Notes under the pieces: generated by a model
What the model was told of the DNA's origin: nothing
Databases searched by the model: none
Seen by the model: the letters and a program-made list of their open reading frames with translations, nothing else
Program-made: the position numbers and the translations under genes
DNA from: a virus
Taxonomy: Duplodnaviria > Heunggongvirae > Uroviricota > Caudoviricetes
Length of the DNA: 10,740 nucleotides
IMG/VR virus record: IMGVR_UViG_2513237361_000016
Direction: 5' to 3' (one strand)
Shown: piece by piece, positions 2,151-3,092 of the stretch
How positions within the stretch are numbered: the first letter of the stretch is position 1
How the letters are laid out: each line of letters starts with the position of its first letter

Positions 2151-3092
2151 TCACCCCCTGAATCCTGCCGGGATCTGGCTGTAGTCCACGTTGTCGTAAC
2201 TGGATTTGAAGTACGGGTCTTCGCGTTTTTCGGTGTACGTGCTGACGGACGGTGATAAGCGCAGGGAAAGCTCATCCCATTTTTCCCGCAACTTCGACGG
2301 GCTGAGCACGTTACGGCACCAGAACGGATCGCGGCTGACGCGGCTGTACATCTCGCAGATTTGTTTGTGAGTACGACCATCCTGCACACACATCAGGCGA
2401 ATTTCGTTTGCCCAGGCTGTCCAGTTCGGTTCTTTGGGACGAACCACCTCGCCGTCACATTCGGCGGCTTGCTCGTACAGGGCGATGATTTTTTTCCAGA
2501 GCCACTGTGCGCAGGTCAAATCATCCTGCGTTCCCCACTGGCGCTTTTTAGGGCTGAATACAACCGCATCAGGATGGCGAGTTAAAAAATCCTGTTCATC
2601 CGTCTGCGTGTCCGGTTGCGAAGCGTCCGGACGAGAAGGTTTTTTATCTGACGGATCATGTTTTGATTTTACTGACGGATCCCCGCCAGATTCTGACGGG
2701 TGAAAACCCGCTTTTTTGCCAGATTTCGACGCATCAAATTTTGACGGGTCAGATTTTGATGCGTCAGATTTTGACGGGTCAGAATCTGACAGTTGAGAAA
2801 ATGCCGCTGCCTGAAGCTTCGCAACGTTAAGCTGATAAACATTCGACGCATTGCGGTTACCCTGGCGACGCGCCTTACGCGTTAACCAGCCTTCTGCTTC
2901 CAGCCGTGCGATAGCCGTCCTGACGGTACTCATCCCCGCGCCAATCTGACGGGCAATAGTTTCAATTGATGGCCAGCACACACCTTCGTCATTACTGAAA
3001 TCAGCCAGGCGGGCCATAATTGCCACGCTGGATAATTTCATGCCTGATGCAGCGCAACCATCCCATACATAGCCGGTTAATTTAGTGCTCAT
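2151..3092 (-). CDS. Replication initiation protein (N-terminal HTH, Ser/Asp/Lys-rich linker, C-terminal domain)
   Basis: 313 aa. N-terminal HTH-like region (SSVAIMARLADFSNDEGVCWPSIETIARQIGAGMSTVRTAIARLEAEGWL). Central peptide repeat SDSDPSKSDASKSDPSKFDASKS is encoded by the tandem DNA repeats. Position after the cro/cII-like genes matches lambda O. Confidence 0.6.
   Translation of the reverse strand: MSTKLTGYVWDGCAASGMKLSSVAIMARLADFSNDEGVCWPSIETIARQIGAGMSTVRTAIARLEAEGWLTRKARRQGNRNASNVYQLNVAKLQAAAFSQLSDSDPSKSDASKSDPSKFDASKSGKKAGFHPSESGGDPSVKSKHDPSDKKPSRPDASQPDTQTDEQDFLTRHPDAVVFSPKKRQWGTQDDLTCAQWLWKKIIALYEQAAECDGEVVRPKEPNWTAWANEIRLMCVQDGRTHKQICEMYSRVSRDPFWCRNVLSPSKLREKWDELSLRLSPSVSTYTEKREDPYFKSSYDNVDYSQIPAGFRG
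2640..2792. repeat. Iteron-like direct repeats (candidate origin of replication) inside the replication gene
   Basis: Repeated (A)TTTTGACGGGTCAG / ATTTTGATGCGTCAG units at about 15-bp spacing (2736-2790), plus further CTGACGG copies at 2648, 2673 and 2694. Adjacent T-rich stretch at 2640-2670. Each TGACGGGTCA unit is internally near-palindromic. Confidence 0.55.

Follow-up and report, generated by a model that had tools for sequence, protein, structure and literature searches.

A candidate replication origin inside the lambda-O-like initiator gene of an SfII/SfIV/CPS-53-type Escherichia coli prophage

In bacteriophage lambda and the Stx phages, the initiator gene carries iterons with internal dyad symmetry in its middle part, where the linker between two protein domains is encoded, and the number of iterons varies among relatives, with four in lambda and six in the Stx phages. 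In ori-lambda an A+T-rich tract follows the iterons in the direction of early rightward transcription (PMC7466680). An origin inside its own gene is also found with G38P of SPP1 and the DnaD-like replisome organizers. Iteron plasmids (RepA, pi, TrfA) likewise combine a winged-helix initiator with direct repeats beside an A+T-rich region, but their iterons are 17-22 bp long, lie outside the rep gene and are usually accompanied by DnaA boxes. Passages of a recent survey report that 34 of 314 Enterobacterales lambdoid phages encode only an O homologue, that none of these phages has been studied and that the way they replicate is "not yet understood" (Genome Res 2025, PMC12315714). The present analysis concerns a gene of this general kind, the replication gene at 2151-3092 of IMG/VR virus record IMGVR_UViG_2513237361_000016. 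The window, meaning the whole 10,740-nucleotide (nt) stretch that was analyzed, is the 10.7-kb early region of an SfII/SfIV/CPS-53 (KpLE1)-type E. coli prophage. Within this gene lies an array of short palindromic repeats that is probably the origin of replication of the prophage. The locus is a variant of the lambda arrangement, with a different winged-helix N-terminal domain (N-domain), a compact 10-bp palindromic iteron at a 15-bp period, and no P gene together with a tail resembling that of the host primosomal protein DnaT.

The repeat array and its initiator

Seven copies of the palindrome TGAY-SS-RTCA occupy 2649-2781 of the window. Four of these cores stand in tandem at a 15-bp period, and the three others are 21-33 bp apart. 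The gene and its repeats are as follows:

2151-3092 (-): replication initiator gene, 313 amino acids (aa), from the open reading frame (ORF) listing; homologue of YfdO and SfIV gp41
2727-2781: tandem iteron block; cores start at 2727, 2742, 2757 and 2772 and encode DPSKS/DASKS/DPSKF/DASKS
2649-2703: spaced iterons; 2694-2703, 2673-2682 and 2649-2658 encode HPS, DPS and DPS
2649-2658 (+): site, TGACGGATCA
2673-2682 (+): site, TGACGGATCC
2694-2703 (+): site, TGACGGGTGA
2727-2736 (+): site, CGACGCATCA
2742-2751 (+): site, TGACGGGTCA
2757-2766 (+): site, TGATGCGTCA
2772-2781 (+): site, TGACGGGTCA
2787-2796: degenerate eighth copy (fifth of the tandem block), TGACAGTTGA, read directly from the sequence

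Tandem Repeats Finder returns a 15-bp period at 2720-2783 (4.3 copies, 81% matches, score 86), and the same array also reads as a 30-bp period with 88% matches; the repeat search extends degenerate copies back to 2646. With at most one mismatch allowed, TGAYGSGTCA gave 13 strand-hits against 2.06 expected, a number that none of 200 shuffles reached, and 10 of the 13 (six positions) fell within 2649-2781. The strict palindrome TGAYSSRTCA was found four times against 0.18 expected (0/200 shuffles), in every case within the same interval. In frame, each core reads Asp/His-(Pro/Ala)-Ser, and the sites together encode SDSDPSKSDASKSDPSKFDASKS...HPS...DPS...DPS, that is, SDSDPSKSDASKSDPSKFDASKS...FHPSESGGDPSVKSKHDPSDKK. 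CTGACGG heptamers outside the array were considered as additional half-sites and rejected. Nine CTGACGG copies occur in the window against 0.9 expected, four of them outside the array but in or close to the replication gene, at 2242, 2920, 2946 and 3212 (+); the two copies in the N-domain region are not conserved in Citrobacter phage phiNP and are thus probably coincidental.

The protein is laid out from N to C terminus as an HTH_36 winged-helix N-domain, a disordered linker, a lambda-O-type C-terminal domain (C-domain) and a DnaT-like tail. Its three larger parts, with confidence given as the predicted local distance difference test (pLDDT) of an AlphaFold model of the full-length protein built on 42 sequences, are:

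2793-3092 (-): N-terminal winged-helix domain, aa 1-100, presumed iteron-binding module
2610-2789 (-): disordered linker, aa 102-161, pLDDT below 50 with confident domains on either side; overlaps the candidate origin
2253-2609 (-): C-terminal helical domain, aa 162-280, homologous to the C-terminal (P-binding) domain of lambda O

By homology the gene is predicted to encode a replication initiator, as it matches PHROG 391, "replication initiation O-like", at E 1e-135; for the C-domain PHROG also gives "DnaD-like helicase loader" and "replisome organizer" hits. The N-domain matches Pfam HTH_36 (E 4e-11), with weak Pfam matches to DnaD_N, as in the DnaD-like organizers, and to RP-C. In the AlphaFold model it shows the pattern of helices and strands typical of a winged helix-turn-helix (HTH) fold (pLDDT 67-87), and it is the only part of the full-length model to find matches with Foldseek, all to winged-helix regulators of MarR/ArsR type. 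Such proteins typically bind palindromes as dimers. A sequence comparison of the full protein with PDB chains returned only MarR-type HTH proteins, and the 35-aa tail found no match there. The disordered segment of the model, 2610-2789, coincides exactly with the repeat region.

The C-domain was modeled with a pLDDT of 83.6 and a predicted TM-score of 0.70, and the full-length model ends in a low-confidence tail after aa 280. No Pfam or NCBIfam family was found for the C-domain, and it took tblastn against phage genomes to bring out its homology to lambda O (39% identity, E 1e-19). Compared with lambda O by BLASTP, aa 173-277 align with O aa 178-270 at E 7e-26. The N-domains differ: lambda O scores Phage_rep_O at E 6e-36, whereas the initiator described here has no match to that Pfam family and carries HTH_36 in its place. 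In the lambda record the annotated iterons (39034-39118) fall on O codons 117-145, and since the sites described here span codons 105-148, the layout is equivalent in position to that of ori-lambda. The repeat units are not alike, lambda having 18-bp iterons at intervals of ~20-24 bp.

A preliminary description of this DNA had proposed that tandem repeats of about 15 bp lie inside the replication gene, that they encode an SKSD-type linker at the same time, and that the arrangement mirrors lambda O. The first proposal is borne out by Tandem Repeats Finder and the enrichment over shuffles, the second by the reading frame and the disorder of aa 102-161, and the third by the position of the iterons and the homologous C-domain. 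It had also placed a T-rich stretch alongside the repeats. This is real as a minimum of duplex stability, but it is interleaved with the last two sites and forms no separate block as in lambda. The features concerned are:

2634-2673: A+T-rich, least stable duplex, candidate unwinding region; overlaps the last two iterons
2654-2657 and 2678-2681: two GATC (Dam) sites, 24 bp apart, inside the last two iterons
1008-1583 (-): phage dam gene (Dam methylase), downstream of the replication gene

By nearest-neighbor stability, the least stable 20-, 30- and 40-bp segments of the gene all fall within 2634-2673 (z 2.6-3.1), a tract of 32.5% GC at the transcription-distal end of the site cluster. Across 61 homologues, the 45 bp beyond the middle spaced site reach 60-73% A+T between flanks rich in G+C. 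Of these 61, 52 keep the second GATC, 24 bp downstream in the orientation of the gene, and all 65 genes compared have GAT as the Asp codon of the middle site, against 59% GAC over D-x-S iteron sites as a whole. The GATC pair and the phage Dam together suggest that the origin is controlled through methylation or SeqA, like oriC and P1 oriR, and origin firing may be gated by this conserved pair together with the phage's own methylase. No DnaA box was noticed on reading the sequence, of which no formal scan was made.

The array is probably the prophage's origin, built on the lambda plan from sites for its own lambda-O-like initiator. From the sequence we infer the following course of events. The N-domain, probably as a dimer, would bind the seven to eight copies of TGAY-SS-RTCA in the linker-coding stretch of its own gene, and cooperative occupation of the closely packed sites would build a nucleoprotein complex resembling the lambda O-some, perhaps assisted by the rightward early transcription that crosses the region from the side of cro. 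This complex would destabilize 2634-2673, the A+T-rich tract at the cluster's distal end. The lambda-O-type C-domain and the DnaT-like tail would then recruit host DnaB with DnaC, with no phage P protein taking part.

It is improbable that the initiator binds these sites only for regulation, as in autorepression, a transcription roadblock, copy control or handcuffing, with the origin lying elsewhere. Plasmid iterons do also mediate autoregulation and handcuffing, and the A+T-rich tract is weak here. The complete 39.8-kb SfIV genome, however, holds all four perfect cores in the initiator linker and none elsewhere, so it offers no second site cluster; its array equals that of the window except for one base in an A-run. 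The equivalence in position to ori-lambda, in a protein with an O-homologous C-domain, and the conserved A+T-rich stability minimum adjoining the sites likewise argue for an origin at the array itself.

Constraint on the repeat DNA and co-variation with the DNA-binding domain

Homologues were sampled as 79 loci with the same N-domain, one genome per species, from Escherichia, Citrobacter, Kluyvera, Pantoea, Yersinia, Rahnella, Providencia and Proteus; amino acid identity runs from 100% to ~70%, with a few further loci at 34-41%. Codons were counted in 67 distinct genes from across the Enterobacterales, with 70-100% amino acid identity in the N-domain. Iteron copy number in relatives had been named in the preliminary description as a point of comparison. 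An SD(P/A/T)SK repeat and a segment F(D/H)P(S/P)ESGGDPSV.SK.DPS are present in all genes with the same N-domain, which hold 4 to 9 sites each, most commonly spaced by 15, 21, 24 or 33 bp. Near relatives differ in whole 5-aa units: P0007, a 96%-identical E. coli form, is without two units, P0012 has one more and P0048 many more, and one form has lost most of the array.

Such variation in whole 5-aa steps is what slippage would give, and the region does encode a disordered linker. Both facts fit an account in which the repeats matter as peptide only, the DNA repeat being a by-product, with no role in cis, of a low-complexity Ser/Asp/Lys linker made by slippage. This account is nevertheless very unlikely, in the first place because synonymous positions are frozen in such a way that the palindrome is maintained. 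The Ser codon of D-x-S is TCA in 93% and TCG in 7% (n=430, 67 genes), whereas the remaining Ser codons of the same genes are TCA in 18% (n=1970). The Pro of DPS is CCG or CCA in 96%, a purine ends the middle codon in 89%, and T stands ahead of GA in 73%; through these synonymous choices the TGAY..RTCA palindrome is preserved. As a control, Ser columns conserved in the N-domain are spelled with two to six different codons, and the mean fraction of the modal codon over 54 conserved columns is 0.55.

Copies outside the tandem block are conserved at the nucleotide level as well. The middle spaced site (GDPSV) is GATCCGTCA in 51 of 65 homologues and one base different in the other 14, and this conservation is not attributable to slippage, since a non-tandem copy cannot be homogenized in that way. 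The last spaced copy reads GATCC(A/G)TCA in 43 of 61 homologues. Compared with phage phiNP, the linker DNA is near identical while the N-domain carries many synonymous changes; phiNP keeps the same 15-bp array though its N-domain DNA is only 82.7% identical. On these alignments the contrast is the reverse of what would be expected for a disordered linker under selection at the protein level alone. In a more diverged relative, a variant with a 57%-identical N-domain (P0113 type), the TGACCCGTCA core is kept at a 15-bp period while the spacers and the peptide between cores have changed (DPSNI/DPSTV). These comparisons point to selection on the repeat DNA and not only on the peptide.

Where N-domains are unrelated, so are the arrays at this point of the gene, which also argues against a role for the peptide alone. 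SfV orf39, which has a different N-domain, repeats GTGCA-N5-6-TTCAC about five times, every 21-24 bp, in the same mid-gene position, and mEp460_4F5, again with a different N-domain, has about five copies of CCATCGGGTCAAAATG at ~23 bp there; each of these two arrays is followed by an A-rich 12-bp repeat. Five distant homologues, from Psychrobacter, Phlomobacter, Thermomonas, Thorsellia and a metagenome assembly labeled Nitrososphaerota, have an array of their own 270-420 nt into the gene. Mosaic joints lie near 2614-2650: the part in common with the window is only 2151-2650 for mEp460_4F5 and only 2614-3091 for phiNP, so that the N-domain and its array move together as a specificity unit. In this set of genes the arrays thus co-vary with the N-terminal DNA-binding domain.

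Least credible is the view that the palindromes are kept for nucleic-acid structure, as a translation-slowing mRNA hairpin or as hairpins in single-stranded DNA (ssDNA): a 171-nt segment does fold far better than its shuffles (z -5.3 as RNA, z -4.6 as ssDNA; 0/200 shuffles as good), but good folding is built into any array of palindromes, conservation concerns base identity (T, G, A ... T, C, A) and not compensatory pairing, isolated sites with no fixed partner are equally conserved, and because copy number varies no fixed fold is preserved.

In some other initiators a second 12-bp repeat, GAACC(A/T)(G/A)TCA(A/T)(A/T/G)(A/G), encoding EPV/EPI, directly follows the iterons. It was seen at 3400-3430 of the SfV locus (L003), 1882-1920 of the Psychrobacter locus (L078) and 1866-1891 of the Phlomobacter locus (L080). 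The repeat is thus common to initiators of very different hosts with differing iterons and is absent from the window gene; it may be a common unwinding element or a site for a host factor.

Helicase recruitment and the DnaT-like tail

In lambda the initiator O works with P, a P gene is present and O ends in ...TDWIYGVDL. The prophage described here has no P gene, and its initiator ends in ...SQIPAGFRG. No P-, DnaC- or DnaB-like gene was found in the window, where the genes downstream of the initiator are PerC/YfdN, Dam, LexA-like, RusA and KilA-N, nor is a loader annotated among the 54 genes of the complete SfIV genome, where gp41, the counterpart of the initiator (98.7% identical), is the sole annotated replication gene. 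The statement in the preliminary description that no helicase-loader gene follows the replication gene thus holds for the window and for the SfIV annotation. Its further suggestion, a search of the C-domain against replication-protein and DnaT-like profiles, pointed in the right direction as regards DnaT: the terminal 9-20 residues of these initiators match the C-terminus of the E. coli protein:

2154-2189 (-): C-terminal tail VDYSQIPAGFRG, matching the extreme C-terminus of host DnaT

The window protein ends in ...NVDYSQIPAGFRG, and its final SQIPAGFRG is identical to the SQIPPGFRG of DnaT in 8 of 9 residues. Sister initiators end in KRERDINAISRPDTSIPPGFRG or VNHISEPDTEIPPGFRG, with the pattern PD(T/S)xIPPGFRG; their tail matches DnaT by BLASTP at E 5e-8, with about 14 of the last 19 residues shared. 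In one sister (L007) about 20 terminal residues align, plus a weak gapped stretch (L007:2311-2370; dnaT L004:1979-2040). The likeness to DnaT (primosomal protein i) is confined to this extreme C-terminal peptide. DnaT consists of an oligomerization N-domain and a three-helix ssDNA-binding C-domain, whereas only the last nine residues of the window protein align with it and the DnaT N-domain is missing; no Pfam or NCBIfam DnaT match was found in the initiator, and its similarity to the three-helix ssDNA-binding domain is weak and non-significant.

The tail is present on initiators with at least three C-domains (lambda-O type, Phg_2220_C and SfV type). Among 72 complete genes in the sampled loci, 41 end in GFR (followed by 0-3 residues), and none of these 41 is followed by a P- or DnaC-like ORF; of the 31 genes without the tail, four are followed by a loader ORF, two of them lambda-P-like and two DnaC-like. 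This anticorrelation is weakly significant over loci that are not independent (Fisher p = 0.03), and it should be taken as a lead, not as proof.

The association of O-like proteins with DnaT is not entirely new, since DopC, a domesticated O-like protein with an HTH_36 N-domain and a DnaT C-terminal motif, was noted earlier; it differs from the initiator described here in that it is reported to have no iterons (Brezellec, 2017, PMC5509034). The LLS "O only" modules resemble the present locus by module type, in having a single O-like initiator and no helicase or loader; passages of the paper that describes them mention neither an origin nor a DnaT-like tail, and name mEp460_4F5 as the closest CI/Cro relative of LLS (PMC12315714). 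The C-domain of the window initiator is shared by mEp460_4F5.

A tentative proposal, which we consider possible but on balance doubtful, is that the tail links the origin complex to the PriA/PriB preprimosome or to DnaC-DnaB by mimicry of DnaT, and so takes the place of P. A recent preprimosome structure shows the C-domain of DnaT docking on PriA and calls the mechanism of DnaB/DnaC recruitment unknown (2026, PMC13377028). The substitution of the tail for P is a hypothesis because the literature examined names no binding partner of the DnaT tail.

Several observations weigh against the origin as proposed or against the part given to the tail. The literature search found no experimentally defined origin or binding in SfV, SfII or CPS-53 yfdO. 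The candidate unwinding tract reaches only ~67% A+T and has sites interleaved in it, whereas that of lambda is a clean 40 bp, and the geometry of the lambda complex is not directly transferable to the present array because its 15-bp center-to-center spacing is tighter. The codon counts overstate the number of independent events, since homologues share descent and tandem units can homogenize. As to the tail, about 27 genes with the same N-domain have neither the tail nor an adjacent loader, and the 2026 preprimosome paper and two reviews assign no function to the last ~20 residues of DnaT.

Genomic setting, prevalence and meaning

The replication gene is 98.7-99.9% identical in DNA to its counterparts in vB_EcoM-689R6, Kati, SfIV and SfII. 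It is matched, in whole or in part, in about half of complete E. coli genomes (2724 of 5426) and near full length (at least 80% of the gene) in 1576; the most frequent E. coli form, a cluster of 5414 sequences, equals the window gene in length, and the K-12 version is the truncated yfdO. On the same strand, the order from upstream to downstream is a P22-Cro-like gene, a CII (CP76)-like gene, DUF4222, the replication gene and a PerC/YfdN-like gene, followed by dam, a gene with a LexA DNA-binding domain, rusA and a KilA-N gene, and the gene for an S24 CI repressor is oriented divergently. From this order and the divergent CI, rightward early transcription is expected to traverse the replication gene, as in lambda.

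Just upstream of the replication gene two ORFs overlap in different frames, 3082-3261 (-) and 3102-3440 (-), and one of the two annotations is probably wrong. The first, of 59 aa and starting at TTG, clearly belongs to DUF4222 (Pfam E 9e-19); the second, of 112 aa, has no family and by size and position is apparently the ORF annotated as gp40 in SfIV. Between the immunity region and the integrase lie two K88-type fimbrial subunit genes, 5585-6418 (-) and 6525-7394 (-) (Pfam Fimbrial_K88, E 2e-64 and 2e-48), with no usher or chaperone inside the window; they look like prophage cargo (a moron). Past the integrase, 9786-10740 (-) encodes a DUF4325 (STAS-like) protein and a 205-aa protein without a family, and an A+T-rich ORF of 264 aa, also without a family, lies at 7619-8413; these three may be defense or accessory cargo.

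Some loci carry the initiator gene in unusual form or under an unusual label. In E. coli ECDA1023 and ECGI0523 (L056, L075), initiator codons 1-79 are joined to an unrelated 455-aa reading frame, a rearrangement that eliminated the iterons and the C-domain. Contigs labeled Vagococcus, Chryseobacterium and Martelella bear an Enterobacterales-type initiator gene at 82-88% amino acid identity, and one labeled Nitrososphaerota (an archaeon) bears a distant homologue (37%); these contigs (L014, L036, L041, L083) are probably contaminated or mislabeled assemblies.

An origin inside a gene of this kind would be expected by specialists, and the surprise is moderate. The value of the analysis lies in an exact map, with seven sites, an unwinding tract and two Dam sites, of a candidate origin in a very common and unstudied module. 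It also supplies SfII and SfIV, serotype-converting phages of Shigella, with their replication gene, and the related SfV has a variant with another N-domain. For annotation the case advises caution, in that an apparent low-complexity linker would here be the shadow of cis-acting DNA, and its codon usage should not be read as neutral. For the family it offers a specificity rule, that the N-domain and its array travel as one unit. The DnaT-type tail provides a concrete lead on helicase recruitment; if the proposed mimicry of DnaT is true, it would make a phage P protein unnecessary in the single-gene modules of lambdoid phages that lack P.

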